From Bifidobacterium longum subsp. longum JCM 1217 (GTDB taxonomy: Bacteria; Actinomycetota; Actinomycetes; Actinomycetales; Bifidobacteriaceae): a stretch of 32,000 nucleotides of DNA. The position numbers and the translations under genes are program-made. Positions 6,281 through 32,000 of this stretch are shown piece by piece. A model generated the notes under the pieces. The model did not search any database. It was not told where the DNA came from and saw only the letters and a list, made by a program, of their open reading frames with translations. The DNA is taken from assembly GCF_000196555.1 (NCBI RefSeq), contig NC_015067.1:1200001-1232000 (forward strand). The letters run 5' to 3'. Positions within the stretch are counted from its first letter, which is position 1; each line of letters opens with the position of its first letter.

Positions 6281-6302
6281 GGCACGCTATACTGTGTGGA
6301 AA

Positions 6303-6352
6303 GGGTCGGCGCGCGTTTTCCGGTTCTCTGTCCGAACGACGCGCGTCGACCC
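6303..6352. terminator. Hairpin between convergent genes (13-bp stem with one mismatch and a large loop)
   Basis: gggtcggcgcgcg (6303-6315) pairs with cgcgcgtcgaccc (6340-6352) and is followed by ttctttgt. Lies between the stop at 6280 (+) and the stop at 6360 (-). Confidence 0.4.
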
Positions 6353-6359
6353 TTCTTTG

Positions 6360-6799: not shown

Positions 6800-6819
6800 C
6801 GCGCGTGTCTCCTTCGCCT

Positions 6820-16136: not shown

Positions 16137-17344
16137 TTGGATGCCTCCTTGCGGCGGATGAGGATTCGCCTGTATGTCTCCTGGCCGTGTATGCGCCCGT
16201 TCATCAGACCGGGCGCACGGCGGGTCATGTTCGGATAGTCGCGGTCTATCGGCTCGGTCTGCGGCGTATGGTGATGCGGGCGTACTTCGATTTGCCGTTG
16301 ACCATCGTGTCCTTCGGATTGTTGAACAGCCCGGCTATCGCCGTCGCCGGACGAGTATGCGAAAGTACGGTTGTACTCTCTCTCTCTTTCTCGGGTGAAG
16401 ACCAGGTCGCGTCCGTCATCGCCCTTGCGGAACGCGACGATGTCGAATTGGTCCGGGTTGTACTTGTCCATGAACGTGATGGGCACGCCCATCACGCCGT
16501 AGTAATCCTCGGGGATGTCGGCCACCTTCGACACCTCGATGGCGTCGTGGTTGTCGTACTTCGGGTAGTCGGTCTCATGGCCCTTGTACCGGCGATAGAG
16601 CAGCAGGTCCTCGTGGCGCTTTTTGATGTCCAGGTTGGTGTACCAACGGCACAGGCCGTTGACTTGTTTGGTGGTCCCCTCGCCGGGGATGGTGAAGTCG
16701 GACGGCGAGGTGAAGCCCAACCAGACCTTGTCATCGCGTAGGAGCGGAAAGATCTCCTTGTAGGTAATGGCGTTCTTGTTGCCCAGTACCACGAATTTCT
16801 TGCCATGTTCCACGAGCGTCGCCACATACTCGCGGAACAGGCTGAACGGCGGATTGGTCACGACGATGTCGGCCTCGTCGAGCAGTTCGAGGCATTCACG
16901 GCTGCGGAAGTCCCCGGCTCCGTATTCGCCGTCCCCGTGGAGCTCGGCCACCTCGTTGCCCGGGGCGTTCAACAGCACTTTGACGTCCTCCATGTCGAAG
17001 CCGCCGTCACCGGTCGTATCCTCCACGTGGGTGACGATGGCCTTGTAGGCGTGACGCGACGGCGCGTCCGGTTCGTCGCCGAACAGCGACGGCTGGTACT
17101 CGGCCCCGGCGATAGGCGAGCCGCAGTAGCTCGTCGCCATCAGCTTCTTCAGTCCCAGATGGTTGAAGTTCAGGGCGAAGTACCTGAAGAAGTTCGACTC
17201 GTAGGGGTCGTCGCAGTTGCAAAGCACGGTCCTGCCTTTGAAATGCTCCGAGTAATGCCTTAGCTCGTTCTCGATGTCCGGCATTCGTGTGTAGAACTCG
17301 TCGTTCTTGGCCTTCTTGGCGGCTGATAGTTGGTTGTTGCCCAT
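16133..17344 (-). CDS. EcoRI-methylase-like N6-adenine DNA methyltransferase, copy 2 (3' region shows a reading-frame anomaly)
   Basis: Start chosen at MGNNQLSAAKKAKNDEFYT (ATG 17344), with the T of an ACGCATAGCG box 11 nt upstream. CNCDDP, VVTNPPFS, tail GLMNGRIHGQETYRRILIRRK. The 74 codons upstream in the track ORF look non-coding. Confidence 0.75.
   Translation of the reverse strand: MGNNQLSAAKKAKNDEFYTRMPDIENELRHYSEHFKGRTVLCNCDDPYESNFFRYFALNFNHLGLKKLMATSYCGSPIAGAEYQPSLFGDEPDAPSRHAYKAIVTHVEDTTGDGGFDMEDVKVLLNAPGNEVAELHGDGEYGAGDFRSRECLELLDEADIVVTNPPFSLFREYVATLVEHGKKFVVLGNKNAITYKEIFPLLRDDKVWLGFTSPSDFTIPGEGTTKQVNGLCRWYTNLDIKKRHEDLLLYRRYKGHETDYPKYDNHDAIEVSKVADIPEDYYGVMGVPITFMDKYNPDQFDIVAFRKGDDGRDLVFTREREREYNRTFAYSSGDGDSRAVQQSEGHDGQRQIEVRPHHHTPQTEPIDRDYPNMTRRAPGLMNGRIHGQETYRRILIRRKEASN
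16376..16387. repeat. (CT)6 / (AG)6 dinucleotide repeat inside MTase copy 2
   Basis: ctctctctctct on the + strand, which encodes RERERE on the minus strand. Confidence 0.9.
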
Positions 17345-17476
17345 ACCGGGCGCTATGCGTCGCGGCGAAAGGAAAGGTGCCGCCGAAGCCTTTGGCGGCA
17401 CGGCCCGTCCTGGGCGGATACGCCGACGGGCCGCCGCCAATAAGCCGGAAGTCCCGCACCGTTTGCCGAACATGAC

Positions 17477-17517
17477 AGGAGGCCGCCTCATGGGATAATC
17501 CCGTGGGGCGGCCTCCT
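17477..17517 (-). terminator. Long hairpin after the 17523 stop
   Basis: aggaggccgcc (17477-17487) pairs perfectly with ggcggcctcct (17507-17517), with partial pairing inside the loop. No clear U-tract. Confidence 0.4.
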
Positions 17518-17522
17518 TACGA

Positions 17523-18092
17523 CTATTCGACGCGTTCCACCTTATCGTCGAACAGATGGAACCCATGGCGTGCGGCGGCGACGCCCTGCGGTGTCCTGTC
17601 GGCCAAACGGCGTAGGTCGCTGTCGTCGTACGCTTTGATGGTCAGCGTGCAATGGTAGCCTCCCTCGCCCTTGGTCAGGTCCAGGTCGGGGTCGGCGAGA
17701 AGCCCCTCGCGGTCGGGCTTGCTTCCTTGGGGATAGCACAGTTTGAAACGGACGGTCCAATCGGCGGGCTCGCCGATCTCATACTCGTCCGACTTTGCGC
17801 CGGGAATCCTCGCGGTGATGTCCGCAGCCTGACGGTTCGCCCGTTCGATGCGGTCCGCCTTGCCCTGATGACGGTCGAGCCAAAGATTCACCGCATGGGA
17901 CACGTCCGCCCCTTCGGATCGGGTGCAGTCGCAGTCGACGTGGACGCGAAGCGCATCCTCATCCCCGTCATATCCGGCCGTGACGATCACAGCCTTGTGG
18001 CAGATGGGACATTCGCGCCCTGCATATAGGTCGCGGAACCGCTCGAACGATTCGACGCAACGATTCCACCTCCAGGCGCGCCCGTACAACAA
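17523..18092 (-). CDS. Hypothetical Cys-containing protein (CPICHK ... CDCDCT, possible zinc ribbon)
   Basis: 189-aa ORF with good third-position GC. Only TTG starts are available, so the start is uncertain. Confidence 0.5.
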   Translation of the reverse strand: MLYGRAWRWNRCVESFERFRDLYAGRECPICHKAVIVTAGYDGDEDALRVHVDCDCTRSEGADVSHAVNLWLDRHQGKADRIERANRQAADITARIPGAKSDEYEIGEPADWTVRFKLCYPQGSKPDREGLLADPDLDLTKGEGGYHCTLTIKAYDDSDLRRLADRTPQGVAAARHGFHLFDDKVERVE

Positions 18093-18190: not shown

Positions 18191-19513
18191 ATGACGGCAG
18201 ACAGGAACAACAGGAGCCACAGGCCGAAGGGCCTGCCCCAGGGGGTGGCGGGCACGTTCGACACGACGGCCGTGACGGCGGGGATCGACGACGTCGTCCC
18301 GCCGTCGGCCGGCGGACGTCGGCTGGACGATGCGATGCTCACAGCCGAAACATACATCATCATGGATCCGGATGTAGCCGACTGCGCGGGATACGCCGCC
18401 AGACGATTGGGTGAGCTCATCGCCCGTCCGGCGAAACCGGGCGAAACCGATGACATGCCGTTGATCATTGAAAACCTGCGATACGATCCGCAGGCCCCGG
18501 GCGGCTCCCATGCCGACTATATCGCCGACCATATAGAGGCCGCCTATGACGGCATACCGGTCAAAGCGCCTGACCGTACGCAATTGGAACAGGAAACCCG
18601 ACAGCATATCCTCGAGACCGCGTTGGATCCGAACCGGGAGCTCCGCAAGCTCGGATTGGAGCCCGTACGGCCAGACGAACACACGAACGCATACGCGGGA
18701 CCGCAGCCGGAGGATTGGGTAAGCGACTACGACGAGGAGACCGCCGAACGCCGCCACGAAGCCGCATGGAAAGGCACCCGGACCAAACAGGCCCGATATG
18801 CCGCGGCGACGGAGAAACACCTGTCACCGTTGAACGATGACATGCGCGACCTGTACAAGACGAACGTCGACCGTGGACTGATCAACGGCAGCGCGTTCGA
18901 TGACAGGATGGCGTTCGCCGACACGCTGCACGAATTGCAGGAGGATGGCTGGAACCCGCAGGCGGGGCGCGAATACCGGAAATCCAAGGAGTTCAGGAAA
19001 CTGGAGAAACAACTGCTGGACGGGCGGAAACCGACCCGACGATACCGGCAGCTGCGCGACGCGTTGTGCGACGACGAACACGGGTACCGGGCGTTCATGG
19101 CCGCGGATCCTGACGTGTTCGACCCGGACGAGAGAATCGTGAAGCCGTTCGCCGGACTCGGCCCCGACGTCGGCCAGGCCGCCATGCTGCGCCTGGCCGC
19201 CAAACACCGGGGCGTCACCGGGGCGCTCGCCCTGGCACGCTGGGATCCGGGCATCGAATACGTGACGGCGGACGCGAAGACCCACACGTTCCGCATGGAG
19301 CATGACCGGCCGGGAATCGGGTATTACAGCGACGGCTCCACCTATCCGATCGGGCACACGGTCATCACGGCGAACGGGATCAAACCCGCGAGCGTGATGA
19401 GCTGGATACACAACGAGAAGCCGGGCACGCCGGAATGGGAGGCGCGGACCCGCACCCGGTTCGAGGAGTCGAACGGCGGCGAATGGAAGCCCGCCGAAAC
19501 CGACGTAATCTAA
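18191..19513 (+). CDS. Leader-family protein E: N-terminal module plus a unique 400-aa body
   Basis: GGAGA 6 nt upstream of the ATG. MTADRNNRSHRPKGLPQGVAGTFD...IDDVVPP. Confidence 0.75.
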   Translation: MTADRNNRSHRPKGLPQGVAGTFDTTAVTAGIDDVVPPSAGGRRLDDAMLTAETYIIMDPDVADCAGYAARRLGELIARPAKPGETDDMPLIIENLRYDPQAPGGSHADYIADHIEAAYDGIPVKAPDRTQLEQETRQHILETALDPNRELRKLGLEPVRPDEHTNAYAGPQPEDWVSDYDEETAERRHEAAWKGTRTKQARYAAATEKHLSPLNDDMRDLYKTNVDRGLINGSAFDDRMAFADTLHELQEDGWNPQAGREYRKSKEFRKLEKQLLDGRKPTRRYRQLRDALCDDEHGYRAFMAADPDVFDPDERIVKPFAGLGPDVGQAAMLRLAAKHRGVTGALALARWDPGIEYVTADAKTHTFRMEHDRPGIGYYSDGSTYPIGHTVITANGIKPASVMSWIHNEKPGTPEWEARTRTRFEESNGGEWKPAETDVI

Positions 19514-20098: not shown

Positions 20099-20919
20099 CC
20101 ATGGATGCGAACAACCGGAGTCATCGTCCCGCCGGACTGCCACAAGGCGTGGCCGGCACGTTCGATACGACCGTATCCGGAGTGGATGATGCCGATGTCG
20201 CCCCTCCCATGGGGGCGGGAACCGTTTCCAATGCGGAGGCATGCGTCAATCTGGCGAAACGCCGCACCATCGACCTGCTGTGGAAGACCGCGAGCATCGA
20301 GGTCAGGGGTCTCACGTTCCCCGATACGCGCGACGTGTTCAAGGGCATCACGCCCGGGGATGCGAGGGCCAGGGATGTGATGGTGCTGAACAATCTGAAG
20401 CACGCCTGGCAGTTCCTTTTCGACAACACGGATTGGCCGGTCGACTGGCAGTATCTTTCCGAATACAACCGGCTTGTAGGTGACGGGCTGGAGCCCTCCC
20501 CCGGCAGGCTGAGGAACGACATGGTCACCATCGGAGGCACCAGATATGTTCCCCCTGTTCCCTCGTATGATGGGGTCAGGGATCAAATCGGAAAGGATCT
20601 CGGGCTTGACGATCCGGAGGATAGGGCGTTGAACCTGTTCGCATCCATCAGCCGGGGCCAATGGTTCAGCAACGGCAACAAGCGGACTTCGGCGATGGCC
20701 GCCAACCATTGCCTCATCCATGACGGGGTCGGCATATTCGCATTGCCTCCGGAACGGATGGATGACGAGTTCAGGGACAGGCTCATCGGCTTTTACGAAA
20801 GCGATGATCGCGGACCGTTCATCGACTGGCTGAAATACCATGCGGTCGGACGTCTGGTGGACAATGGGCTGACTTCGGCGCAGAAAAACGGGGATGATCC
20901 GATCCACGACGATATGTGA
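20095..20919 (+). CDS. Leader-family protein F: N-terminal module plus a Fic/Doc (Fido) domain with a non-canonical active-site motif
   Basis: MTMDANNRSHRPAGLPQGVAGTFD...DDADVAPP. Fic-fold landmarks are PGRLRNDMVTIGGTRYVPPVP and ISRGQWFSNGNKRTSAMAANHCL, against the canonical HPFx[DE]GN[GK]R and the Doc motif HxFx[DN][AG]NKR. Confidence 0.75.
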   Translation: MTMDANNRSHRPAGLPQGVAGTFDTTVSGVDDADVAPPMGAGTVSNAEACVNLAKRRTIDLLWKTASIEVRGLTFPDTRDVFKGITPGDARARDVMVLNNLKHAWQFLFDNTDWPVDWQYLSEYNRLVGDGLEPSPGRLRNDMVTIGGTRYVPPVPSYDGVRDQIGKDLGLDDPEDRALNLFASISRGQWFSNGNKRTSAMAANHCLIHDGVGIFALPPERMDDEFRDRLIGFYESDDRGPFIDWLKYHAVGRLVDNGLTSAQKNGDDPIHDDM

Positions 20920-20986
20920 TATTCGACAATGACGGGGACGCATGCGGGATGCCATAAAGGATTTCTCCGCATGCAAGGAGCCCGTC

Positions 20987-22408
20987 ATGGCCGAAAGAAT
21001 CACCACACTGTTACAGGATCGTCTCCCGGTGGATTCGGACCGTCGTCTGAAGGTGCCGGCCATCCGGCCGGAGGACGACATGGTCGCCGTCCGCCGCCGT
21101 CTGGGCCGCTACCTGTACGATTCATTGGAGAAGGACACGGACCGCAAGGCGGTGGCCAAGGCCACCGCGAACGCGATCTGGCCGGGCTGCACGCCCATCG
21201 ACCGCGACACGGACGCGGAGGTCGCGCGCGACCTGAGGCGCACGGAATCAAAGACCGGCAGCCCCGCGATCGCATTGCGGCATCCGGCGGGGCGGATTCT
21301 CATCATCGGGCTCGGCCCGCACAAACCCATGCTGGCGAGAATCGACTACAGGTACCGTCTCTCGAAGCGCACCGTGGACACGGTGAGCCTGCCGAGCCTG
21401 CTGGCCGCCCGCATGATCATGGAGCATATGGCGAACCCGGATCCGGAGGGGCCGATCCGCGACCTGCTGACCGACGACCGGCACACATGGCAGTATTTCC
21501 GTACGAACATGGATCGCCGGTTCGAAGGCGTGGACGGGCTCGTCGTCTCCTGCAACACCCGCGGCGTGAGCCTCCCCGACCCGCCCGAGGCGGGCGATGC
21601 GAAGGCGTTGCTGGCATGGACGGTCGGGGCGGGACTGATCGGATTGGACTGCGATGACGAACGCGCGAAAAGGCTGCTGGCGGAACGCCTCGAATGGGTG
21701 CGGTGGACGGCGGAGCTGCGGCTTGCGGCCGAGACCATCCTGCGCGTCGAATCGGATTGGCGCATGAACCGGGATCTCGCCCGCCGCACGGAGGCCGGAG
21801 TATCGGCGACCGTGTTCGAGGACAAGAAACACCGTGATCCGAAGCACGACAAGGCCGGGCAGGCCAGCCCGTTCGCCATGGACTTCGACCGGATCGAGGT
21901 CGAGGACGACGTGGACCTCGCCCTGTTCGCCCGACTGGGAGCCGAATGGGAGGCGTTGAAGCCCGCCGTCCCCATGTCCGGGACGCGCGCCGCATTGCGC
22001 TTCCGCTACACGGGACGCCACCGGGCGGACGGCGTCTACCACACCGGTTTGCGCGCGATCGCGATAGACCCGCGCCACCCCGAATCGTTCGGCCACGAGC
22101 TCATGCATCACCTCGACCACACGTGGGGCGGAACCGACCTGAGCCTCGACCCGCTGTTCCGCCCCCTGCTCGACCACTATCGTGAGACCGTGGACACGGC
22201 GCGCATGAAGGGCGCGAACCCGGACCGGTGGCTCGCCCCCGCGGAGGCGTTCGCAAGGGCGGGCGAGATTTGGCTGCACATGCGACTCGACGGCGCCGAA
22301 AACAGTCTGCTCTCCGACGGCGGGCATTACGAAACGGATTGGGCGTACGCCCCCTACCGGGGCCGGTGGAATGAGATCGGGACCGTGTTCGACCGGCTGT
22401 TCGCCTAG
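20987..22408 (+). CDS. HExxH zincin-like metallopeptidase-motif protein (473 aa)
   Basis: AAGGAG 6 nt upstream of ATG 20987, with an alternative ATG at 20942 inside a conserved box. The C-terminal third carries ESFGHELMHHLDH. Confidence 0.65.
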   Translation: MAERITTLLQDRLPVDSDRRLKVPAIRPEDDMVAVRRRLGRYLYDSLEKDTDRKAVAKATANAIWPGCTPIDRDTDAEVARDLRRTESKTGSPAIALRHPAGRILIIGLGPHKPMLARIDYRYRLSKRTVDTVSLPSLLAARMIMEHMANPDPEGPIRDLLTDDRHTWQYFRTNMDRRFEGVDGLVVSCNTRGVSLPDPPEAGDAKALLAWTVGAGLIGLDCDDERAKRLLAERLEWVRWTAELRLAAETILRVESDWRMNRDLARRTEAGVSATVFEDKKHRDPKHDKAGQASPFAMDFDRIEVEDDVDLALFARLGAEWEALKPAVPMSGTRAALRFRYTGRHRADGVYHTGLRAIAIDPRHPESFGHELMHHLDHTWGGTDLSLDPLFRPLLDHYRETVDTARMKGANPDRWLAPAEAFARAGEIWLHMRLDGAENSLLSDGGHYETDWAYAPYRGRWNEIGTVFDRLFA

Positions 22409-22474
22409 AACACGGCGTCGCGTATCCGCCATACGCCGCCCGTCGCATACGCGACATCCCGGGTGACGCACGTG

Positions 22475-22516
22475 ACGCCGGCCGGCACCGGACCGCAACG
22501 GTCGGCCGGCCGGCGT
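22475..22516 (+). terminator. GC-rich hairpin downstream of the HExxH gene
   Basis: acgccggccgg (22475-22485) pairs with ccggccggcgt (22506-22516) around a 20-nt loop. No U-tract. Confidence 0.25.
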
Positions 22517-22619
22517 TCCGCATGGCCCGGACCGTGACCGCGCAAAAAACGTCGGACGGCGCGCACTCCAGGATTTCACGCCCTCCCGTAAGCGTCCGGG
22601 CCCGGCATAGCCGGCACGC

Positions 22620-25600
22620 ATGATCAGATTCGAATACGAATACCCCGTCCGCGTGAAGACCCAGGCAGGCGACAGCGTCGAATTCGACCCGGCGAACAAC
22701 GGCGGCCACCGGGCGCTCCTCGACCGGCAGATAGCGAAATGGCAGGCCGGGTATCCGGAGGCCAAGGCCGCCCGCCTCGAATTCATCGACCGGGACCGGC
22801 ATGTCGCCGTCCTCGTCGACCGGCAGTCGTCCAGCGTCGACATGCGCGACGATTCCAGCCTCGAAGTCAATCTGAGCGCCGAACATTCGAAACCCAGCAA
22901 GGGCGCCGAGGTGCAGGCCGTATACGAGACGAAATACCCCGGATACCGGCTCACCGTGTTCCACCCGTACGAAGGCAAGGCGCTCCTCGAACGGCTCACG
23001 GACGCGCAGGCCACGGCCCGCGCCCAGATCGCCACCGAACTCGGCCTGCACGACTGGGATCTCAGGGTCACGCCTTTGGAGGACGGCGGATGGAAGGTCC
23101 TCCTCGACGAGGGCATCACCTACCAGCCGTCCAAAATGGACACGCGCATGGAGAAGGCCTGCCTGACCGTCGGCCGGCTCGGCTGGTGGTTTGACGCCGA
23201 CCCCGACACCGGCGTCATCGAGATCCATCCCGGCGAGCCGCCCACCTTCCCCAAACTCGTCCCCTTCCCGTTCGACCGGATCGGCGACCCGACCGTCCGC
23301 GACAAGACCCCGTTCGGCATCCGACTGGCCCGCCCCGGCGAGACCGGCGAACCCGCGTTCGTCGACTGGACCCAATCCCTCGGCCTCCTTATAGCCGGAT
23401 TGTCAGGTGGCGGCAAGGCTCTTCCCTTGGATGCGCGTATCCCCGTGCCCGTCTCCGAACGCTTCCCCGCCGGCTGGGCTAGGAACCGGGACCTCAAAGA
23501 AGGCGATCCGGTGTACGGGCGCGACGGGCGGATCATCCCCATCAAGGACTTCAGCGACGTGGAGGAGCTGCCCATCTACCGTCTGACCCTGTCCGATGGC
23601 CAGATTCTGGAATGCGCGGACAACCATCTGTGGACCGTATCGGATTCCGTCATGCGCCAGGCCATGTCCGACGAACGAGGCCGGGAGCGACGCGAACAGA
23701 CCATCCGGCTCGTGAATCGTTTGCGTGACGAAGCGGCCACGGTCGGGGATGGCGTGAGAGCCAACCGACGCCATATCGCCATCGACCACGGGCTGCCCCC
23801 TAATGTGACCCAGAACTGCGCGGAACGGCATGATCTGGTCGGGTCGGATGGCCTGTGCGACGAGGCGGAACTGCTGCACGCCATCGCCGACGAACGCGAA
23901 TCCTACGTCATGCCCGGCGGCGTATGGGCGAACACCGTCGAAACGATCCTCACTGCACGCGAGATATCGGAGAATCCGAAACCTCACGGCAAATGCTGGG
24001 GTATCCGCCTTGCCAATCCCATCGAGAATCCGGACGCCAACCTGCCGCTCGGCCCGTATTTCCTCGGCACCTGGCTTGGCGACGGCATCTCCCGTGCCGG
24101 GGCCATCTGTCTCAACGATGACGACGAACCGCATATGCAACCCGACATTCTCTCCAGTCTGGGTGGTTCGATCCGTCGCGGAAAAGTTGAACACGGGGCG
24201 CATACCTGGTTCTATGACATGGATGACGGGCGCATCCTCGTAACCGAACTCAAAAGGCTCGGCCTGTACATGGACAAGCACATCCCCGCCGTCTATCTGC
24301 GCGCCTCCAAGAGCCAGCGCCTCGCCCTGCTCCAGGGGCTCATGGATACGGACGGTTCGGTTTCCAGTCGCGGATCATGCGAACTGTGCTTCACCAATCA
24401 GCGGCTTGCCGAAACCGCATTGGAGCTCATCCGCTCCCTGGGCATCGCCGCCGGCATGCACTCCGGACGGGCGGGCTATACAAAAGACGGCGAACGTGTG
24501 GAGGCCGGCATCCGGTATCGGATCCGTTTCACCACCTCCAAACCCGTGTTCCGCTTGCCCCGCAAACTGGCACGGCTCAAGACCGACACCCGTTCCACGC
24601 AGGATTGGCTGTACATCACGTCCTGCGAGCCGACGGGGCGCACGGAGCCGGTCCGCTGCCTGAACGTGGCGACCGACGACCACCTGTTCCTCATGGGCGG
24701 GTTCGTGCCCACGCATAACAGCGTCACCATCAATGACGTGACCACGTTGGGCATCGGCACGGGCGCGGAACTGTACGTGATCGACCATTCCACGAAGGCC
24801 ACCGACTACTACTGGTGCCGGCCGTGGATCGCGGACCGGGGCTGGGGCGCGGATTCGCTGCTCCAGACCGCCGGACTGTTGAAATGGCTGCTCGACGACA
24901 TCGAGGACGGCGGCGAGCGCGCCAGGGCGTGGAAGAGCCACGGCTGGCAGAACTGGTACGACGACCTGTCAGACGAGGACAAGAGACGATACCCGTACCG
25001 GCTGATCGTCGTGGACGAGCTGTCCCAGCTGACGGTCGGCGCGAAGGATGCGACCAGCCTGCCGAAGAACCCGCTGCCGCCGGTCATGGAGAAGATGTTC
25101 GAACAGCAGGTGAAGGCGCTCATCCTGTCCACCCTGATCCGCATCCTTCAGATCGGCCGAGCCTATGGCTACCGGGTGGTGGTCGCCACCCAGATCGCGT
25201 CGTCGACGACGGGCATGCCGCCCGCGTTGCGCGGCAACCTGGGCAACAAGGTCATCATGGGCGCGAAGGTCAACGACGCGCAGAAGAACCTGATCTTCAA
25301 CATCGCGAAGGACGTGCCCGACATTCCGGCGAACGTGATCGACGAGGGCGTGTCCAAGGGCGCGGGCCTGAGCGAGATGGAGGGGCAGCCGCCCTACGAT
25401 TTCAAGAGCTCGTTCCCCATGCTTGGGCATCATGCGGGCGTGGCGGCGCTCGGCAAGGCTTTGGCCGAACGGATCGGCCTGCCCGACGGGATCGGCATGG
25501 ACGAATACCTCGACTCCCTGGACAAGGACACGCCTTCGAACCCGGAGTTCGAACAACGGGTCATGGAACGCATCCGGTTCCCCGAGGCGGAATCATATCT

Positions 25601-25811
25601 GCGTTTCCCGTTCCTGCAGGCCATCAAGGACAAGTGGGATGAAAGCCTCGACGAGTACGGGGGCGGCCCGGCCGATGCCGGATCCGGGGGGAACGGGGAT
25701 GACGGCACCGCACCCGCCGGCCGACCGGTCGCACCGGCCGCCTCCGGCCCGGAACCGTCCGGCCCGCTCATGGACGCGGCCGAACTGGCGCGCATCATGC
25801 GCCGGGGCTGA
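22620..25811 (+). CDS. FtsK/SpoIIIE-family conjugative coupling/translocase ATPase (TcpA/TraB-like), interrupted by an intein
   Basis: Walker A is split as GLSGGGK | S. Walker B is YRLIVVDELSQL. VVVATQIASS...LRGNLGNKVIMG is typical of FtsK-like motors. No SD, and the T of a GGCATAGCC box is 12 nt upstream of the ATG. Confidence 0.85.
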   Translation: MIRFEYEYPVRVKTQAGDSVEFDPANNGGHRALLDRQIAKWQAGYPEAKAARLEFIDRDRHVAVLVDRQSSSVDMRDDSSLEVNLSAEHSKPSKGAEVQAVYETKYPGYRLTVFHPYEGKALLERLTDAQATARAQIATELGLHDWDLRVTPLEDGGWKVLLDEGITYQPSKMDTRMEKACLTVGRLGWWFDADPDTGVIEIHPGEPPTFPKLVPFPFDRIGDPTVRDKTPFGIRLARPGETGEPAFVDWTQSLGLLIAGLSGGGKALPLDARIPVPVSERFPAGWARNRDLKEGDPVYGRDGRIIPIKDFSDVEELPIYRLTLSDGQILECADNHLWTVSDSVMRQAMSDERGRERREQTIRLVNRLRDEAATVGDGVRANRRHIAIDHGLPPNVTQNCAERHDLVGSDGLCDEAELLHAIADERESYVMPGGVWANTVETILTAREISENPKPHGKCWGIRLANPIENPDANLPLGPYFLGTWLGDGISRAGAICLNDDDEPHMQPDILSSLGGSIRRGKVEHGAHTWFYDMDDGRILVTELKRLGLYMDKHIPAVYLRASKSQRLALLQGLMDTDGSVSSRGSCELCFTNQRLAETALELIRSLGIAAGMHSGRAGYTKDGERVEAGIRYRIRFTTSKPVFRLPRKLARLKTDTRSTQDWLYITSCEPTGRTEPVRCLNVATDDHLFLMGGFVPTHNSVTINDVTTLGIGTGAELYVIDHSTKATDYYWCRPWIADRGWGADSLLQTAGLLKWLLDDIEDGGERARAWKSHGWQNWYDDLSDEDKRRYPYRLIVVDELSQLTVGAKDATSLPKNPLPPVMEKMFEQQVKALILSTLIRILQIGRAYGYRVVVATQIASSTTGMPPALRGNLGNKVIMGAKVNDAQKNLIFNIAKDVPDIPANVIDEGVSKGAGLSEMEGQPPYDFKSSFPMLGHHAGVAALGKALAERIGLPDGIGMDEYLDSLDKDTPSNPEFEQRVMERIRFPEAESYLRFPFLQAIKDKWDESLDEYGGGPADAGSGGNGDDGTAPAGRPVAPAASGPEPSGPLMDAAELARIMRRG
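23418..24719 (+). mobile_element. 434-aa intein with a LAGLIDADG homing endonuclease domain, inserted in the P-loop
   Basis: Starts ALPLDARIPV right after GGGK and ends FVPTHN before SVT, so removal restores GLSGGGKSVT. Block B is GQILECADNHLW and block F is VRCLNVATDDH. LAGLIDADG motifs are YFLGTWLGDGIS and LALLQGLMDTDGSV. Confidence 0.85.
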
Positions 25812-25940
25812 TCCGGATCCCGGTCTCCGGGCCCATCCTGTTCCAATCGGCCAGCCAAACGACGATCCGATCATCATCATGCATGTACCAGGCCGGCCGT
25901 TCAGAAGCGCAAACCGACCGTATCGCACTGATACGGGACT

Positions 25941-25959
25941 CCCATGCCTCAGGCATGGG
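25941..25959. terminator. Perfect 8-bp hairpin between convergent genes
   Basis: cccatgcc tca ggcatggg, followed by aggacgtcaa. Lies between the stops at 25811 (+) and 26018 (-). No U-tract. Confidence 0.35.
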
Positions 25960-26017
25960 AGGACGTCAACGTATCGGCTTCCGATGCTAGCGCATGCGCC
26001 TTGTCCCCGGCCGGTGG

Positions 26018-27052
26018 TCATCCATGCGCCGGATAAGCGTCCCGTGGCGTCCCGTCGTCGGCGATGCTCGCCCAATGGTATCCGTAGGCGACGTGATCCG
26101 GGTCGCCCGCCACATGCCCGATGTTGGTGGCCGACCCGGCGGGCAGTCCCAATGCGACTGCGGCGGCGCGCAACGACGGGTATATGGTTCCCGTCTCCAC
26201 GCAGCGGATGGCGTGCCGGTTGCCTTTCGGCGCGGATCCCGCCCTCAGCCGGGCCAGGAGCGCCGGATCAGCCGAGGCCAGCCGGGCCAGCCATTCCGGG
26301 CTCGCCCAATGGAAGCCGCCGGCGCGGCGATCCGGATTGTCTCGCACATGGTTGATCAGGTCGCGCATGCCGGGCGTGTTCCTTGTCCGGCCCGTCAGGG
26401 CCAGGGTTTCGGCGGCGCGCATCGCGTCCCCGTATTCGACGCCCGTCTCCACGCATACGACCGGGCCGCGCAGCATGGTCTCGCGCATCGTCCTGCGCCA
26501 GGCGGCGAGCAGGCCGGGATGCCGGCGGCGTATCCGCCCGTACGTGACGCCGTCGACCCAGTGGACGCCCCCGTTCCGCCTGTCCAGCCGGTTGCGCTTC
26601 TGCAACCGGGATACGGGCATGCCATGCGCTTCGGCGGCCAGCGTCATCGTGTCGTACGCCTCCCCCGTTTCGGCGCACACCCACAGTCCCCTGAGCCGCT
26701 CCCCCTCCACAAGCCCCCGCAGCCGGCGGCGGCCTTGTTCGCCCAGCGCATCCCAGCGTCCGGCGGAAATCCAGTGCGCGCCGCCGGCGCTGCGACGCCA
26801 TGGCTGCGCGCTTCTGGCCGCCACGCTGATCCTGCCCACGGCCGCCCCGGTCTCATCATGGGCGGCCTTCAGCGTGTCGAACCGTCTGCCGTCCTCGATG
26901 CGCACCACGCCGGACAACCGTCGCGGCTCGAACTCGAATCCCGCGGCCTCCAGACGACGGGTCTGCCCCGCGTCGAGCCGGCCATGCCGCCACGCGTCGC
27001 GGATCCGCGCCGCATACGCCTGGTATCGTCTGGCTTCAACGCTTGTCGCCAC
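26018..27052 (-). CDS. Helicase-associated-domain-like N-terminus plus four tandem NUMOD1-like DNA-binding repeats
   Basis: GTG start overlapping the helicase 3' end by 17 nt. Four repeats of the pattern h-x-C-h-E-T-G-x-x-Y-x(3)-AA-x(10-25)-GG-x-HW: RIEDGRRFDTLKAAHD..GGAHW, VCAETGEAYDTMTLAAEA..NGGVHW, VCVETGVEYGDAMRAAET..AGGFHW, RCVETGTIYPSLRAAAVA..AYGYHW. Confidence 0.7.
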   Translation of the reverse strand: MATSVEARRYQAYAARIRDAWRHGRLDAGQTRRLEAAGFEFEPRRLSGVVRIEDGRRFDTLKAAHDETGAAVGRISVAARSAQPWRRSAGGAHWISAGRWDALGEQGRRRLRGLVEGERLRGLWVCAETGEAYDTMTLAAEAHGMPVSRLQKRNRLDRRNGGVHWVDGVTYGRIRRRHPGLLAAWRRTMRETMLRGPVVCVETGVEYGDAMRAAETLALTGRTRNTPGMRDLINHVRDNPDRRAGGFHWASPEWLARLASADPALLARLRAGSAPKGNRHAIRCVETGTIYPSLRAAAVALGLPAGSATNIGHVAGDPDHVAYGYHWASIADDGTPRDAYPAHG

Positions 27053-28295
27053 GGCGTTCCCCCAATCGTCGGATCACGTATTCGATCTTCCCGTCCATGC
27101 TCATGCCCAGCATGTCCTCCAGACGGGAGGCGAGGATGCGGATGTCGGCCGTCTCGTCCACGATCCGCATGCCCGCCAGCGGGTTTCCGGCATCCATATC
27201 CGCGCCGCCGGCCGCATCCGCGGGGGTTCCATGGGCGAGCAGCCATCCCAGCCCCGAATAATTGTCCGATATGTCGAACACGAGGGGCGTCCGGTTGCCC
27301 GTCGCGTCCAGGACGCGCCCCAACTGCTGGAGGTACACGTGCGGGCTTGTGGTGGCGCGCAGCATGACGATCGCGTCCACGCCGTCCAGATGCACGCCCT
27401 CGTTGAGCATGTCCACGCAGTACAGGATCTTCCGCCCCGGCGCCGAATCCGCCTCGAACGCGCGGATCGCGCCGTCGGGCCGCCCGTACCGGCTGTGGAT
27501 CGCGTAATCCCTCGCATCCGGGCCGAACCATTCGCGGGCATGGGCGCGCGCCCCCTCCAGCCGGGTCAGGTCGGTGCAGAACACGATGACGTGCGCGTCC
27601 GGCGGCAGGCGGCGGGCGAACATGGCGTCGACGCCTGCCATGCCCGTCACGGCGCGGCGCAGCCGTTCGAACAGGCGGCGCGCGTCCGGCGTCCCGCACC
27701 GTTCCACGCGGGGGCGGACGCGTCCGATGAGCGCATCCCCCTCGTATCCGGCGATGACGTATTCGGGGACGGGCAGTATCCGTCGCGCCCATGCCTCGCT
27801 CAATGTCATGCGGGAGGCGACCCGCCCGTCGAACAGCTCGTCGGTCATGTCCCTGGCCCCGTCCCCGTACCGTCTGGGCGTGGCCGACAGTCCGACGATC
27901 CTCGCCCCGGGGTTCGCGTCCAGGAGACGGCGCACCCCCGCGCCCCAATGGCGGGCCCCGCAATGATGGTATTCGTCGAGGATGATCAGGTCCGCATGCG
28001 GCATGGGGTTCCCGCGGCGCGTGCCGATCATCAGCTTCGCGTAGGTGAGGACCGTCACCCGGTCGGCCCGGAAGCCCGGGATGTCCCGTTCCAGGCATGG
28101 CAGCCGGCCGTCGGTGATGGTCCTTGACGGAGTGCACCAGATGACGTCCCATGACGGGCGGGCGGCGATGAGCGCGGCGGCGACGTAGGATTTGCCGGTC
28201 CCGGTCGGCTGGATGACGGCCGCCCTGTCCGTCATGTCGAGCATGGCCTCCAGTCCGCGCAATGCGGTCCGATTATGCGGGAGCAGTCCGTTCAT
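27036..28295 (-). CDS. Superfamily-2 DEAD/DEAH-box helicase (type III restriction Res-like core)
   Basis: Motif I QPTGTGKS, motif II LILDEYHH, motif III LSATP, motif VI QQLGRVLD. ATGA overlap with the upstream gene. Confidence 0.85.
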   Translation of the reverse strand: MNGLLPHNRTALRGLEAMLDMTDRAAVIQPTGTGKSYVAAALIAARPSWDVIWCTPSRTITDGRLPCLERDIPGFRADRVTVLTYAKLMIGTRRGNPMPHADLIILDEYHHCGARHWGAGVRRLLDANPGARIVGLSATPRRYGDGARDMTDELFDGRVASRMTLSEAWARRILPVPEYVIAGYEGDALIGRVRPRVERCGTPDARRLFERLRRAVTGMAGVDAMFARRLPPDAHVIVFCTDLTRLEGARAHAREWFGPDARDYAIHSRYGRPDGAIRAFEADSAPGRKILYCVDMLNEGVHLDGVDAIVMLRATTSPHVYLQQLGRVLDATGNRTPLVFDISDNYSGLGWLLAHGTPADAAGGADMDAGNPLAGMRIVDETADIRILASRLEDMLGMSMDGKIEYVIRRLGERRGDKR

Positions 28296-29074
28296 GCCGT
28301 CGGGTATGCGTTCCCCTCGCGTTTCTCGAACGTTTCGAGCATGGCGGGCACGCCTTCCATGGGGAACGTGGCCGTCGTGCCGAGGATGACGCCCTTCAAC
28401 AGGTTCGCGGCCACATGCTCCGCCTCCCGGACGGCTTTCGTGTTCGAGGCGGGACGCCGGTGCGCGGCCGCGTACTCGCGCATGACGGGCAGTTGGCGCG
28501 CCAGCTCGTCGTCATGCATGCCGTGCGCGCGGATGCGCCGCAATTCCGCGAGGTCGTCGTCCGGCAGGCGGCACGGCCATGGGGCGGACGGGTCCGCGCA
28601 GACGAGGCCGGCGGCGAGCATGAGCCGCATCGATTCCGCCTGCATTTTCCGCCGCCGCCGGGCGTCCATGTCCCGTTCCAGCAGATGCAGGTTCGAGGCG
28701 ACGTTGCCCAACGCCATGTCCACGGTCCGCCGTGTCGCCAGACCGGCCGCCAGGGGCTTCAGACCGTCCGGCAGCCCCGCGTCGAGGAGCAGGCACCCGT
28801 CCGGCAGGGACAGGGCCTCGAGCATGTTCGGGGATCCCTTGGCGACGCCTTTCAGGAACGCGACGGGCGTCATGATGGTGATGTCGGGATCGTGCAGCCC
28901 GATCGTCGCGTCCGCGCGATCCAGGAGGATGTCCTCCGGATCCGGCGCGATGACGATCCTCAGGTCGATGTCGCTGTCCGGACGGGCGAGCCCGTGCGCG
29001 TGGCTGCCGCCCACCCATGCGGCGAGCACGCGACGGGCCATGTGGGGTGCGAGCGCCTGTTCGAAACGGTTCAT
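28292..29074 (-). CDS. Pol-beta-superfamily nucleotidyltransferase (RlaP/PF10127-like)
   Basis: Start chosen at MNRFEQ (ATG 29074, ATGA overlap with the upstream stop). NTase signature GGSHAHGLARPDSDIDL (G-S ... D-x-D). Confidence 0.7.
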   Translation of the reverse strand: MNRFEQALAPHMARRVLAAWVGGSHAHGLARPDSDIDLRIVIAPDPEDILLDRADATIGLHDPDITIMTPVAFLKGVAKGSPNMLEALSLPDGCLLLDAGLPDGLKPLAAGLATRRTVDMALGNVASNLHLLERDMDARRRRKMQAESMRLMLAAGLVCADPSAPWPCRLPDDDLAELRRIRAHGMHDDELARQLPVMREYAAAHRRPASNTKAVREAEHVAANLLKGVILGTTATFPMEGVPAMLETFEKREGNAYPTA

Positions 29075-29403
29075 CGTTCGATTCCCAACGATTCGAGGTA
29101 GTCGTCGCCGAGCCGGGCGGCCTGCCGGCCTTCGCGGCTGTGGTTGATGCGGTCGGCCACGTCGCACGCCTCGCGGACGAGACCGGCGAACAGGCGGGCG
29201 TCGCCGGCGTCGCGGGCGCCGATGCCGGTCCATGCGATGCGGGCCTTGCCGTATTCCATGCGGATGGTCACGCAGGCCGGTTCGCCGAGGCGCGTGGCGT
29301 CCGTCCCGTTGTCGATCCGGTATGGGCGTTCCGGGTCGTCGAGACGGTGGACGGTGAAGTGTTCTGTGGAGAATGCGATGCGATCGTTCATGGAGGGATG
29401 CAT
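29071..29403 (-). CDS. Hypothetical protein (106-110 aa), first gene of the helicase operon
   Basis: ATG 29403 is directly preceded by GGGGACGC, with an alternative ATG at 29391. No motif recognised. Confidence 0.5.
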   Translation of the reverse strand: MHPSMNDRIAFSTEHFTVHRLDDPERPYRIDNGTDATRLGEPACVTIRMEYGKARIAWTGIGARDAGDARLFAGLVREACDVADRINHSREGRQAARLGDDYLESLGIER

Positions 29404-29430
29404 GCGTCCCCGCGGACGGGTTCCGTCGGG

Positions 29431-29479
29431 CTTTACATTATTGTAAAGCCCCGGCCCCGGACTTTACAATATTGTATAG
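29431..29479 (-). promoter_or_regulatory. Two 18-bp AT-rich palindromes that carry a sigma70-like -35/-10 for the minus-strand operon
   Basis: ctttacattattgtaaag (29431-29448) and ctttacaatattgtatag (29462-29479). On the minus strand, TTGTAA (29469-29464) and TACAAT (29445-29440) are separated by 18 nt, about 35 nt upstream of ATG 29403. Confidence 0.45.
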
Positions 29480-29801
29480 TTTTCCGGCCCGTTTTGTATG
29501 CGTGTATGCATCTGTATGCATCCGGGGATGCATACAGAAAAAGCCCGGAAAAAGCCCGAAAACCCTTATATATAAAGGGAAAAACAGAATTCCTTTCTCT
29601 TGTATGCATTGTATGCATCAATATAAGGGGTTTCTTCCCTTTTTCCCGAATCCCCTATAAGGGAACGATGCATACAATGCATACACGCCCCCGGACCATC
29701 CCCGGAACGTCGGAAACAAGCCGAAACGGGAAGAGAAGATGTATGCATCCCCGGATGCATACGGATGCATACACGCGCCCCGGAATGCATACACGGCCCG
29801 G

Positions 29802-29827
29802 GGCCGGCGACCGCCGGCCACCGTTTT
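29802..29827 (+). terminator. Terminator-like hairpin plus T-tract inside array unit 1
   Basis: ggccggc gacc gccggcc, then accgtttt. Confidence 0.3.
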
Positions 29828-30259
29828 GCCGTGAGGGTGCCCCGCCTTTAGGCGTGGGGAGGACGTCAAGCGATCCTCCGATCCGTTTCGCCGGGCTCCC
29901 CGGGGGTTCGCGATGCTGTGGAGCCGCATGCGCGGGACCGTGTATGCATTCCGGTTCGCGTGTATGCATTTGTATGCATCCGGGGATGCATACAGAAAAA
30001 GCCCGGAAAAAGCCCGAAAACCCTTATATATAAAGGGAAAAACAGAATTCCTTTCTCTTGTATGCATTGTATGCATCAATATAAGGGGTTTCCTTCCTTT
30101 TTCTCGAATCCTCTATAAGGGAATGATGCATACAATGCATACACGCCCCCGGACCATCCCCGGAACGTTGGAACCAAGCCGAAACGGGAAGAGAAGATGT
30201 ATGCATCCCCGGATGCATACGGATGCATACAGGCCGGCCGGAATGCATACACGGCCCGG

Positions 30260-30285
30260 GGCCGGCGACCGCCGGCCACCGTTTT
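30260..30285 (+). terminator. Terminator-like hairpin plus T-tract inside array unit 2
   Basis: Identical copy 458 bp downstream of the first. Confidence 0.3.
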
Positions 30286-30737
30286 GCCGTGAGGGTGCCC
30301 CGCCTTTAGGCGTGGGGAGGACGTCAAGCGATCCTCCGATCCGTTTCGCCGGGCTCCCCGGGGGTTCGCGATGCTGTGGAGCCGCATGCGCGGGACCGTG
30401 TATGCATTCCGGTTCGCGTGTATGCATTTGTATGCATCCGGGGATGCATACAGAAAAAGCCCGGAAAAAGCCCGAAAACCCTTATATATAAAGGGAAAAA
30501 CAGAATTCCTTTCTCTTGTATGCATTGTATGCATCAATATAAGGGGTTTCTTCCCTTTTTCCCGAATCCTCTATAAGGGAATGATGCATACAATGCATAC
30601 ACGCCCCCGGACCATCCCCGGAACGTCGGAAACAAGCCGAAACGGAAAGAAAAGATGTATGCATCCCCTGATGCATACGGATGCATACAGCCCGCCCGGA
30701 ATGCATACGCGCCCCGGGGCCGGCATAGCCGCGCCGC

Positions 30738-30845
30738 ATGAACGGCTTGAGACCATACGCGGTCCGGTTCACGGTGTCCGCCTCCCTGTGGATGACGACC
30801 ACCGGCGACGAGGTGTGTTTTAGCAAGTTGGCGTCCGCTTTGTGA
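30738..30845 (+). pseudogene. 5' fragment of a gene truncated by the IS21-family insertion
   Basis: ATG with the T of a GGCATAGCC box 12 nt upstream and no SD. Reads [26 protein letters not shown], then runs into IS-end sequence and stops after 35 codons. Confidence 0.5.
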
Positions 30846-30925
30846 GCGGTGTTTTTCCGCAGTGTAGGCAGCGGGTTTTCCGCAGGGTGTGCGGTATCGG
30901 CCGCTGCCTGTCTGCGTTGTGTTGG

Positions 30926-31711
30926 TTATTTGGTCATGAGGGCGTGTTCGCTTCGGTAGGAGCGGCCCTCGAATCTGATGAGCCGTCCGTGGTGGACGGT
31001 GCGGTCGATGAGGGCGGCGGCCATGTTCTTGTCGCCGAGCACGCGTCCCCATCCGCTGAATTCGATGTTGGTGGTGTAGATGATGCTCCTTGTCTCGTAG
31101 GAATCGGAAATGATCTGGAAGAGGAGCCTGCTGCCCTCCTCGTCTATGGGCAGGTAGCCGAACTCGTCGATGATGAGAAGTCGGGCCTTGCCGATGCTCG
31201 CGAGTTCCCGGTCGAGCCGGTTCTCCTGCTGGGCGCGGCGCAGACGCATGAGCAGTCCGGTCGCGGTGAAGAAGCGCACCGGGACGCCCCGCTCGCAGGC
31301 GAGCCGTCCGATCGCGATGGCCAGGTGGCTCTTGCCGGTGCCGACGGGCCCGTAGAGCACGAGGTCCTCGCATCCGGCGACGAAGTCGAGGTTCTCGAGC
31401 TGCGCGCGCCCCCAGTCGGCGGGCATCTTCAGGTTGGTCCAGTCATAGCCGTCGAGGGTCTTGTCGGCGGGGAAGCCGGCCTGTTTGAGCAGGCGCAGGC
31501 GTTTGGATCGCTCGCGCGAGTCGAGTTCGGCCGTGAACCATCGTTCGATGAAGTCGAGCTGGTTGGGCGTGGCCTCGGCGAGCGTGCCCGCGAGCACGCT
31601 GCGTGTCAGGGTCAGGCTGCGGCTCATCTTCAGGATCCTCTCGCTCTTCTCGGTCGTGGACGCGCGACGGCGGCGGGTCTCCGGGATCACCGGATCGGGT
31701 CTGACGCTCAC
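30926..31711 (-). CDS. istB: IS21-family helper ATPase IstB
   Basis: Walker A GPVGTGKSHLA, Walker B LLIIDEFGY, IYTTNIEFSGW and RTVHHGRLIRFEGRSYR. GTG start overlapping the istA stop, with an alternative ATG at 31627. Confidence 0.9.
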   Translation of the reverse strand: MSVRPDPVIPETRRRRASTTEKSERILKMSRSLTLTRSVLAGTLAEATPNQLDFIERWFTAELDSRERSKRLRLLKQAGFPADKTLDGYDWTNLKMPADWGRAQLENLDFVAGCEDLVLYGPVGTGKSHLAIAIGRLACERGVPVRFFTATGLLMRLRRAQQENRLDRELASIGKARLLIIDEFGYLPIDEEGSRLLFQIISDSYETRSIIYTTNIEFSGWGRVLGDKNMAAALIDRTVHHGRLIRFEGRSYRSEHALMTK

Positions 31712-32000
31712 CGTTCTTCCCCTCCGTCGTCCGTGCCGGTGATGAACCGGTCGTAGCCGCTCAGGTCGGGCTCCTCGATCCCGCCGGGGTATTCCCACTC
31801 GCCGTCGCGCATGCGCAACGCGATAGGGGTGAGCGAGTCCGCGTGCAGGCCCATGTCCCTGTTCGAGCGCAGGATCTCGCCGCACGCCTGCATCGCGGGA
31901 TCGAACCCGGCCGCCCGGCACGCGTCCCCGATCGCTTTGAGGCTCTCCCTCAACGTCTTTTCGTCCATGGAATCAAGCCACGCGCGTATATCGTCGGGCA
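31708..32000 (-). CDS. istA: IS21-family transposase IstA, C-terminal part only
   Basis: The reading frame is open to the window edge (PDDIRAWLDSMDEKTLRESLKAIG...). It lies immediately upstream of and overlaps istB. The call is by position. Confidence 0.6.
   Translation of the reverse strand, partial: PDDIRAWLDSMDEKTLRESLKAIGDACRAAGFDPAMQACGEILRSNRDMGLHADSLTPIALRMRDGEWEYPGGIEEPDLSGYDRFITGTDDGGEER

Follow-up and report, generated by a model that had tools for sequence, protein, structure and literature searches.

An amplified iteron module in a Bifidobacterium longum genomic island: a candidate origin-type site of large mobile elements

What is the function of a tandem array of iteron-packed units in the chromosome of a Bifidobacterium longum strain, and why are there several of them? 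The locus lies near one end of a 32,000-nucleotide stretch of B. longum subsp. longum JCM 1217 (NC_015067.1, positions 1,200,001 to 1,232,000), called here the window, whose own numbering we use throughout; other places compared carry L numbers. A first reading of the letters alone (the original prediction) had described the array and had likened its organization to that of plasmid replication origins or partition sites. Comparing sequences, we arrive with about as much belief as doubt at the view that the repeated module would be an origin-type initiator-loading site in a family of large, high-GC Bifidobacterium mobile elements. It probably has a second role as an operator for flanking promoters: because operons for DNA metabolism begin with divergent promoters that a module overlaps or adjoins, occupancy of the modules would probably gate those operons too.

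Anatomy of the array

Tandem repeats with a period of 458 bp had been predicted, and TRF indeed detects a single array at 29500-30724 with this period, 2.7 copies, 96% matches and no indels; a repeat search of the window places 300-nt copies at starts of 29500, 29958 and 30416. The iteron TGTATGCAT has 31 exact matches in the window, all within 29503-30689, against 0.12 expected from shuffles. Allowing up to one mismatch gives 37 sites, of which 36 (31 exact and five with one mismatch) fall in the array and the other lies at position 5570; the consensus of the 36 is YGTATGCAT followed by C or T (a TGTATGCATY-type site). The predicted count of about 35 iterons, 12 to a unit, was therefore close to the mark, with 36 sites in all and 11 exact plus two degenerate sites in unit 1. 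By contrast, the core ATGCAT is not rare elsewhere, as had been claimed, since it occurs nine times outside the array against about eight expected by chance for the whole window.

The array has the layout A-B-A-B-A, in which A is a low-GC iteron module of about 310 bp and B a GC-rich spacer of 149 bp. The third unit, thought to be cut short, proved to end in a complete A, colinear with single-copy loci. Differences among the three units affect some 4-5% of positions, and the parts of the array are as follows.

29493..29808 (+), module A, unit 1: 13 YGTATGCAT sites, A-tracts, AT palindrome, T-rich centre
Left-half sites of unit 1: 29495+, 29503+, 29513+, 29528-, 29601+, 29610+
Right-half sites of unit 1: 29668-, 29677-, 29740+, 29755-, 29765-, 29785-
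29809..29957 (+), spacer B, copy 1: GC 0.68; one extra iteron at 29941
29951..30266 (+), module A, unit 2: right half like the L115-type paralogue
30267..30415 (+), spacer B, copy 2
30409..30724 (+), module A, unit 3: complete; runs into the ancestral right flank

Module A has a GC content of 0.48, against 0.66 for the window, and its 12-13 oriented iterons are organized palindromically around position ~29643. At the left end, three or four sites in the pattern (+ + + -) are followed by phased A-tracts (29537-29563) and an AT palindrome (GC 0.38), CCCTTATATATAAAGGG, at 29564-29580. In the middle, two abutting + sites (29601+ and 29610+) and two abutting - sites (29668- and 29677-) face each other, separated by 49 nt of T-rich sequence (GC 0.45), and at the right end a purine-rich stretch precedes sites in the pattern (+ - - -). 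The A-tracts, the AT-rich near-palindrome and the GC-rich hairpins that had been noticed earlier are thus all present, the hairpins (29800-29860) being terminator-like and lying in the left part of spacer B. The ends of the module form inverted repeats of 37 nt (29500-29536 and 29740-29776; 97% complementary), and both strands fold as a 300-nt hairpin (z = -10.6 and -11.6). Unit 1 scores 388 bits in nhmmer. A promoter scan found no sigma-70-like promoter in the core module and no -35/-10 pair in the hairpin stems, Rfam at its gathering thresholds gave no match in the window, and no tRNA genes were found there.

Spacer B was seen only between units and at none of the single-copy loci compared. 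It contains a 53-nt hairpin (29818-29870 and 30276-30328) that is 94-96% identical to an intergenic site lying between convergent genes in five B. longum megaplasmids (e.g. NZ_CP065396.1, 113048-113100) and that is probably a shared bidirectional terminator, while its right part (29862-29957) is homologous to the ribosome-binding site and 5' flank of a leftward gene beside the module copy at L115. Each unit carries a GAATTC, and a link with the EcoRI-like methylases of the window was considered and dropped; GAATTC is not conserved in other copies of the module.

The module in related elements

A contig of 186,745 bp in IMG/VR (IMGVR_UViG_2687453622_000001) is colinear with the window at 1-3265 and 20699-29808 and carries six copies of the module, at about 53, 70.5, 113.5, 118, 142 and 175 kb. 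Five have one orientation; the sixth, which corresponds to the window locus as its orthologue, has the opposite one. The B. infantis ATCC 15697 region (L121) holds a seventh. The search of related elements for the iteron, put forward in the original prediction, thus yielded six copies on this one element, together with the variants in diverged elements described below. All dispersed copies are intergenic and 92-97% identical over ~303 bp, with iterons and spacers almost invariant. One lies 79 nt upstream of the start of a gene encoding an 847-aa protein (WP_058060845.1) with Pfam DUF5906 and Prim-Pol domains, a D5-like helicase-PrimPol (L118), and another 28 nt upstream of a PIF1-like helicase gene; genes for an RNase-T-like exonuclease, an RNA ligase and, in one strain, an N6/N4 methyltransferase neighbour further copies. 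The helicase-PrimPol gene is ~105 kb from the window-locus orthologue on the 186-kb contig. The modules stand at operon heads, usually between divergent genes, with start codons 14-95 nt away, and five copies directly adjoin strong divergent promoters that overlap each other.

Beside one copy, at L115, a small low-GC gene (2486-2737, -) with its own consensus promoter lies ~170 nt from the module and gives a weak match to RHH_10 (E = 0.0065). It is not conserved beside other module copies, and may be a cargo antitoxin or regulator.

A scan for iteron pairs in one genome per species, over 185,579 species, returned 97 stretches, all attributable to chance and from unrelated genomes, most of them AT-rich; the only Bifidobacterium match among them (L076) is an unrelated coincidence of two sites. 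BLAST of the array gave no match in phages, and in plasmids only the 53-nt hairpin.

The 847-aa protein has its helicase before its PrimPol domain and gives a weak match to TIGR01613 ('P4 family primase'); no sequence match was found in the PDB. A structural model built from a 28-sequence alignment (predicted local distance difference test score, pLDDT, 84.4) has as its best Foldseek matches C962R, the PrimPol of African swine fever virus, and the replicative primase-helicases E5 of monkeypox virus and D5 of vaccinia virus, and a predicted helix-helix-hairpin segment (472-541) looks winged-helix-like. No homologue is present in 72,556 plasmid records; the sole relatives in annotated collections, 26% identical, are encoded by eight Bifidobacterium phages, in one of which the gene is preceded by an origin-like region of 1.5 kb, rich in repeats, where inverted CCTACAT copies surround AT-rich sequence. 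We conclude that the protein is a replication enzyme of mobile elements.

Homologues of this protein with 24-64% identity were then located in other assemblies, and the regions upstream of their genes were inspected. In almost all cases the gene-free region immediately upstream was filled with modules of the same grammar: this type of module lies directly upstream of a D5-like helicase-primase gene at seven other loci, is weak at L139 and takes a different form in phage L140. The loci, with two more at PIF1 genes, are listed below.

L133, B. felsineum: 2 x 518 nt; iteron ATGCATACA
L134, B. myosotis: 3 x ~600 nt and, inverted, 2 x 577 nt, in a 5.4-kb gene-free stretch; iteron ATGCATACA
L135/L136, metagenome: 3.6 x 378 nt; mostly TGTATTCAG
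L137, metagenome (33% protein identity): 2 x 401 nt; iteron TGTATGCA
L138, metagenome: 2 x 624 nt; (G)TGATGAAC, about 20 copies
L152, metagenome: TTAACTGCA module adjoining the gene (10 copies of TTAACTGCA against 0.77 expected), and a TGATGAAC module
L139, metagenome: weak CGTATTCAG repeats; the 1.16-kb gap that holds them also precedes a divergent PIF1 gene
L159, PIF1 operon: module ~70 nt upstream; fifth iteron variant, CGTATGCAC
L160, PIF1: contig starts inside the module, just upstream of PIF1

Across the diverged elements there are five different iterons of 8-9 bp, in modules present in one to five tandem copies upstream of the helicase-PrimPol or PIF1 gene. What is conserved is the presence of several copies of one 8-9-mer, a CCCT...AGGG palindrome, and abutting direct pairs that face inverted pairs over a T-rich spacer of ~50 nt with CCTT(A)AAGGG-like motifs; the facing pairs recur at L135, L138, L152 and L159. 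A change in iteron sequence, with the grammar and the gene linkage kept, is the signature expected of a protein-DNA recognition pair. Triplication of a whole unit had been thought unusual, but two to five tandem modules turn out to be the usual state before the helicase-primase gene in these relatives.

Two of the listed loci have features of their own. At L134 (4589-10001 of RZUH01000004.1) the five modules account for ~2.9 kb, and ~2.3 kb (4589-6850) lies outside them. At L152, the TGATGAAC and TTAACTGCA modules (4966-5247 and 5992-6320) stand side by side upstream of one helicase-PrimPol gene, an arrangement that could be a hybrid or a site cross-talking with a second element. Scanning IMG/VR for the L135-type iteron returned only low-GC, unrelated contigs; two low-GC viral contigs of IMG/VR (GC 0.34) have ~10 clustered GTATTCA motifs in both orientations (L142, 1008-1234; L145, 3462-3688), perhaps an iteron origin of another kind whose core happens to be similar.

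Origin, operator or other element

The module shares with iteron origins whose initiator is a self-loading SF3 helicase (the SaPI ori and P4 ori/crr type) a cluster of identical short repeats and an AT-rich centre between oppositely pointing iterons; adjacency to a helicase-primase gene is found for the paralogue at L118 (79 nt) and for the arrays at L133-L138 and L152. The closest parallel is the origin of the Staphylococcus aureus pathogenicity islands (SaPIs), where 6-12 iterons lie beside the rep helicase gene, with an AT-rich centre and at least two opposed iterons on each side, and are recognized by a self-loading helicase through a winged helix (PMC9371898). As in the SaPI origin, the iterons here are short and opposed about an AT-rich centre, and the modules of the relatives adjoin a helicase-primase gene. 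The modules differ, however, in their size (300-600 bp, with 10-20 sites), in lying upstream rather than downstream of the gene, in occurring as two to five tandem copies and in being dispersed over an element of more than 180 kb; moreover, the helicase is here D5-like, fused to a PrimPol and without detectable sequence similarity to solved structures. The part of the original prediction that invoked origins thus finds partial support in the modules before helicase-primase genes and in the SaPI-like layout, whereas the part that invoked partition does not, as partition genes were found beside none of the related arrays. A classical iteron origin of a theta plasmid, with direct iterons of 17-22 bp beside a rep gene of its class, is a poorer match, as the 9-mers stand in both orientations and the window has no Rep family match.

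Phage P4 offers a second comparison, its alpha protein combining a primase and an SF3 helicase with a DNA-binding winged helix (PMC2777425). The 847-aa protein resembles it in being a helicase-PrimPol with a weak TIGR01613 match, but differs in the type of primase domain and in the order of domains, the helicase here preceding the PrimPol. P4 alpha reportedly binds octamer iterons both at ori and at the distant crr. The latter is a direct duplication carrying iterons, and P4 is thus a precedent for tandem and distant iteron modules that serve one initiator, although with two sites on an 11.6-kb genome rather than the at least six near-identical modules on 186 kb, with local amplification, seen here. 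In the same host genus, the RepB origin of pMP7017 also has iterons in both orientations, an essential flanking AT-rich region and extra repeats that affect stability (PMC8313286). Its iterons, however, are 20-mers with the core GGnCnAnnR (PMC8313286), rather than YGTATGCAT, the initiator class differs, no RepB-type gene is found here, and only one 1.1-kb gene and the 53-nt hairpin are shared with the Bifidobacterium megaplasmids. Both the RepB iterons and the 34-bp promoter motif of pMP7017 were consequently rejected as matches, being different sequences.

In the mechanism we propose, a sequence-specific protein encoded by the element would bind the TGTATGCATY sites, which are spaced 9-10 bp apart. 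The best candidate for this binder is the element's D5-like SF3 helicase-PrimPol, whose gene has its own copy of the module. Sites facing each other over the low-GC, T-rich centre could allow helicase rings to assemble head to head, melt the centre and prime synthesis themselves, and the 36 sites of the amplified array, compared with 12 in a single copy, would give either higher local loading or titration of the binder. The role of protein sink that had been suggested as an alternative for the array is, for the amplified copies, a possible one.

Several observations weigh against such a loading site. The 32-kb window has no helicase-primase gene and the array does not stand beside an initiator gene, its neighbours being a nucleotidyltransferase/SF2-helicase operon and a gene for a 275-aa protein; a Rep, ParA/ParB or other known iteron-binding gene, of the kind that was to be looked for nearby, is not found beside the array in the window, nor are partition genes found beside the related arrays. 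The repeats at L139 are only weak. Regional identity of the helicase-PrimPol does not track the type of iteron (the iteron is unchanged in L137, where the proteins are 33% identical, and changed in L135, where they are 47% identical), so that the binder may be another protein. An attempt to identify the binder by co-variation was dropped, as windowed identity did not follow the iteron type and the protein encoded downstream belongs to two unrelated families. Within B. longum, the copies are equally conserved across iterons and spacers, and selection on the iterons is therefore not separable from recent spread or gene conversion within the lineage. To our knowledge, at least six near-identical 'origins' on one element are without bacterial precedent, and a purely regulatory role fits the dispersal at operon heads at least as well.

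That regulatory alternative, in which the modules are binding platforms for an element-specific regulator of replication and DNA-metabolism operons and have no origin function, is a minority possibility but a serious one; the two roles are not mutually exclusive, and the tandem copies would on the regulatory view strengthen or buffer repression. It would account for the position of the modules at operon heads, mostly between divergent genes with start codons 14-95 nt away, for the overlapping divergent promoters adjoining five copies, and for the recurrence of one module before genes as different as those for PrimPol, PIF1, an exonuclease, a ligase and a methyltransferase; the small gene with the weak RHH match beside one copy (E = 0.0065) would also suit it. 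Repeated element-specific sites at several promoters are a feature of omega-parS of pSM19035, where omega binds heptad arrays, and of the KorB operators on IncP plasmids. They are likewise a feature of pMP7017, in which a 34-bp motif defines a plasmid-specific regulon of 19 promoters (PMC10832533). Those sites, however, are 13-70 bp long, whereas the modules here are composites of 300-600 bp with 10-20 sites, A-tracts and an AT-rich centre, far larger than known operators. Two to five tandem modules before one gene are hard to explain through regulation alone, the core module lacks a sigma-70-like promoter, and no regulator gene conserved beside the arrays was found, the only conserved neighbours being replication helicases; neither a cognate regulator nor a ParA for the module was identified here.

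A bolder extension of the loading-site view, which we consider rather unlikely, is that an element of more than 180 kb has at least six dispersed, locally amplifiable modules, recognized by a D5-like helicase-primase or a partner protein, so that it either fires multiple origins, like archaeal and eukaryotic chromosomes, or uses the modules as master switches of its replication regulon; the modules would then also be joints for the exchange of cassettes, and at least five iteron specificities, two of them present together at L152, could set incompatibility between elements in one host.

Three further explanations fare worse. A partition centromere, with arrays bound by a small ribbon-helix-helix (RHH) or helix-turn-helix (HTH) protein and moved by a ParA, ParM or TubZ motor, as at R1 parC, pB171 parC1/2 and tubC, is improbable. 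Clustered short repeats in both orientations do resemble parC, parH and tubC, and dispersed multiple sites per replicon are known for omega/parS and N15; a Pfam search, however, covering the window and ~10 kb around each of nine related arrays, gave no match to the ParA, ParM, TubZ or ParB families, and in B. longum the element forms part of the chromosome (contigs of 2.3-2.5 Mb), with no obvious use for a centromere.

We give still less credence to a miniature inverted-repeat transposable element (MITE) or foldback element, with the 37-nt inverted repeats as its termini and carrying transposase sites, that spread within the element and was tandemly duplicated here, even though those repeats are 97% complementary, the ~310-bp copies are intergenic, dispersed and 92-97% identical, and insertion sequence (IS) elements are frequent nearby. 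The copies have no target-site duplications and a ragged left boundary (29428 to 29500), no empty site was seen among 10 related places, representatives of 185,579 species gave chance hits only, and in diverged lineages the iterons change while the module stays with the same genes, which is the behaviour of a functional cis-element. Just as doubtful is a single-strand hairpin, either a promoter of the F-plasmid Frpo type or a lagging-strand (sso/ssi) signal, which on the conjugally transferred strand would switch on early genes, among them those for methylases, helicases and primase. The folding of either strand over 300 nt, the conjugation-type hydrolases and orphan methyltransferases of the element and the early, DNA-metabolism type of the downstream genes would all agree with this. 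The long perfect hairpin, however, is not conserved, the z values in relatives being only -4.2 and -3.9 and explained by inverted iteron pairs, whereas the trait that is conserved, the repetition of one 8-9-mer, is superfluous for a hairpin; in addition, the stems lack a -35/-10 pair and both orientations of the module are present on the 186-kb contig.

Iteron origins for SF3 helicase initiators are already known. New in this case are how large and composite the module is, how regularly it is multiplied in tandem, its scatter over at least six sites of one element of more than 180 kb, the five iteron specificities and the host group. A full-text search for the 9-mer returned only unrelated matches, to primers and eukaryotic sequences, we found no description of this element family or module in the literature, and the papers on pMP7017 cover different repeats. 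If the loading-site reading is true, a widespread family of large mobile elements in B. longum and related gut bifidobacteria would have in the module its cis-acting element for replication and control, and in the helicase-PrimPol its likely initiator. Few replicons serve as genetic tools in bifidobacteria, and module and helicase-primase together would be a candidate vector backbone, for which the five iteron variants would offer compatible sets. Tandem multiplication and dispersal of origin-type modules at operon heads would also blur the distinction between origin, copy-control site and operator.

Copy number, flanking genes and the surrounding island

The copy number of the module at this locus varies between strains. 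In eight of 11 related places, a single A without B lies between the genes for a 110-aa and the 275-aa protein (the places listed as single-module are L099, L100, L102-L105, L107, L108 and L128), and window positions 30416-30813 are colinear with the single-copy loci L099, L100, L104, L105, L107, L108 and L128. An independent complete genome, CP139157.1 (L106), has 3.7 units; three are 100% identical to units 1, 2 and 3 of the window, and the fourth is a chimera of the left of unit 2 and the right of unit 1, which points to unequal crossing-over as the source of the copy-number variation. Spacer B resembles the paralogue at L115, as does unit 2 in its right half, and this suggests that the array was founded by ectopic recombination between dispersed copies. 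The array is thus a lineage-specific tandem amplification that arose by ectopic recombination, followed by unequal crossing-over; it is real, unstable in copy number and hard to assemble. That only one real module exists, the tandem copies being mis-assembled from reads of dispersed paralogues, is scarcely credible: the module is admittedly present in many copies, an N-gap interrupts the array of one related 'complete' genome and one metagenome contig breaks inside the module, but each unit has its own substitutions, all three recur unchanged in the independent genome beside a fourth, recombinant unit, spacer B is present only between units, and tandem arrays occur in many unrelated assemblies of relatives.

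In CP137052.1 (L101), an apparent boundary of the element inside the array was rejected, since it coincides with a run of N (9313-9412) and is an assembly gap. Another run of N inside iteron repeats occurs in phage BP742P1 (L140, 1171-1270), and these runs in deposited 'complete' or 'partial' genomes indicate that such arrays defeat assemblers. A module that breaks or scrambles assemblies, leaving a gap of N in one case and a broken contig in another, calls for caution with assemblies of these elements and with the copy number read from any single one.

Homology between strains also breaks at module edges, and the module therefore seems to act as a recombination joint for the exchange of cassettes. 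At L103 the break, at 9576, falls exactly at the module edge and the gene to the right encodes an N6/N4 methyltransferase, not the 275-aa protein; at L102 (9565-11077) identity in the nucleotidyltransferase falls to 87%, and a Fic gene takes the place of the helicase after it.

The features that flank the array in the window are as follows.

29431..29479, left of unit 1: two copies of the 18-bp palindrome CTTTACAaTATTGTAAAG, as an inverted repeat
26018..29403 (-): leftward operon of four genes, with its promoter on the module side
29403-29071 (-): 110-aa orphan protein, first gene of the leftward operon
29074-28292 (-): Pol-beta-type nucleotidyltransferase, leftward operon
28295-27036 (-): SF2 helicase, leftward operon
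27052-26018 (-): 344-aa protein, leftward operon
30738..30813 (+): first 25 codons of the 275-aa gene; start 14 nt past the module; intact in L128 (9337-10164)
30814..32000 (-): IS21-family insertion sequence (Pfam IstB_IS21, 1.3e-55)

The CTTTACAaTATTGTAAAG palindromes form overlapping divergent promoter-like sites, TTGTAA-18-TACAAT, at 29441-29470 (+) and 29469-29440 (-), one of which is directed at the leftward operon, and the same palindromes border the module in L128, L112, L113 and L118. For the 110-aa protein no homologues were found outside B. longum-type elements, and it gives no clue to the binder. It occurs in B. longum D2957 and also in subsp. infantis ATCC 15697, on chromosomes of 2.3-2.5 Mb and on many gut metagenome scaffolds, and as a marker it is indexed in 1005 blocks of the assembly collection. 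To the right, the truncated gene that had been noticed after the array is confirmed as the first 25 codons of the 275-aa gene, broken by the IS21-family insertion at 30814, homology stopping at 30813. Of the insertion sequence, the window contains end repeats TTTTCCGCAG(T/G)GT at 30853 and 30876 and an IstB ATPase gene (~30926-31711), while istA exits the window; L106 has the same insertion sequence at the identical site.

The surrounding DNA has a GC content of ~0.67. Its gene content, with CHAP and NlpC/P60 hydrolases, orphan methyltransferases and an intein-containing ATPase, identifies it as a large, integrated, conjugative-type island. The 1063-aa ATPase (22620-25811, +) has a LAGLIDADG/Hom_end segment at about residues 566-640, which is intein-like; its PHROG matches are intein-bearing terminases and an FtsK/SpoIIIE-like protein, and it probably serves the element in DNA translocation or coupling. 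Synteny with the PrimPol arrays through a ~1100-aa FtsK-like neighbour was considered and rejected, the identity being only 24% over 241 aa. Genes for EcoRI-like adenine methyltransferases (13837-14799 and 16133-17566, -) bracket a gene with GmrSD_N and HNH nuclease domains (15030-16136), which with a separate GmrSD_C protein (7687-8622) makes up a cluster for modification and modification-dependent restriction. Finally, the only long stretch common to the window and Bifidobacterium megaplasmids lies at 18330-19441, within a 440-aa open reading frame (18191-19513, +); identity is 87% with B. longum megaplasmids and 79% with B. breve pMP7017, where the annotation is hypothetical protein; on this comparison, the shared frame suggests gene exchange between the island and the megaplasmids.

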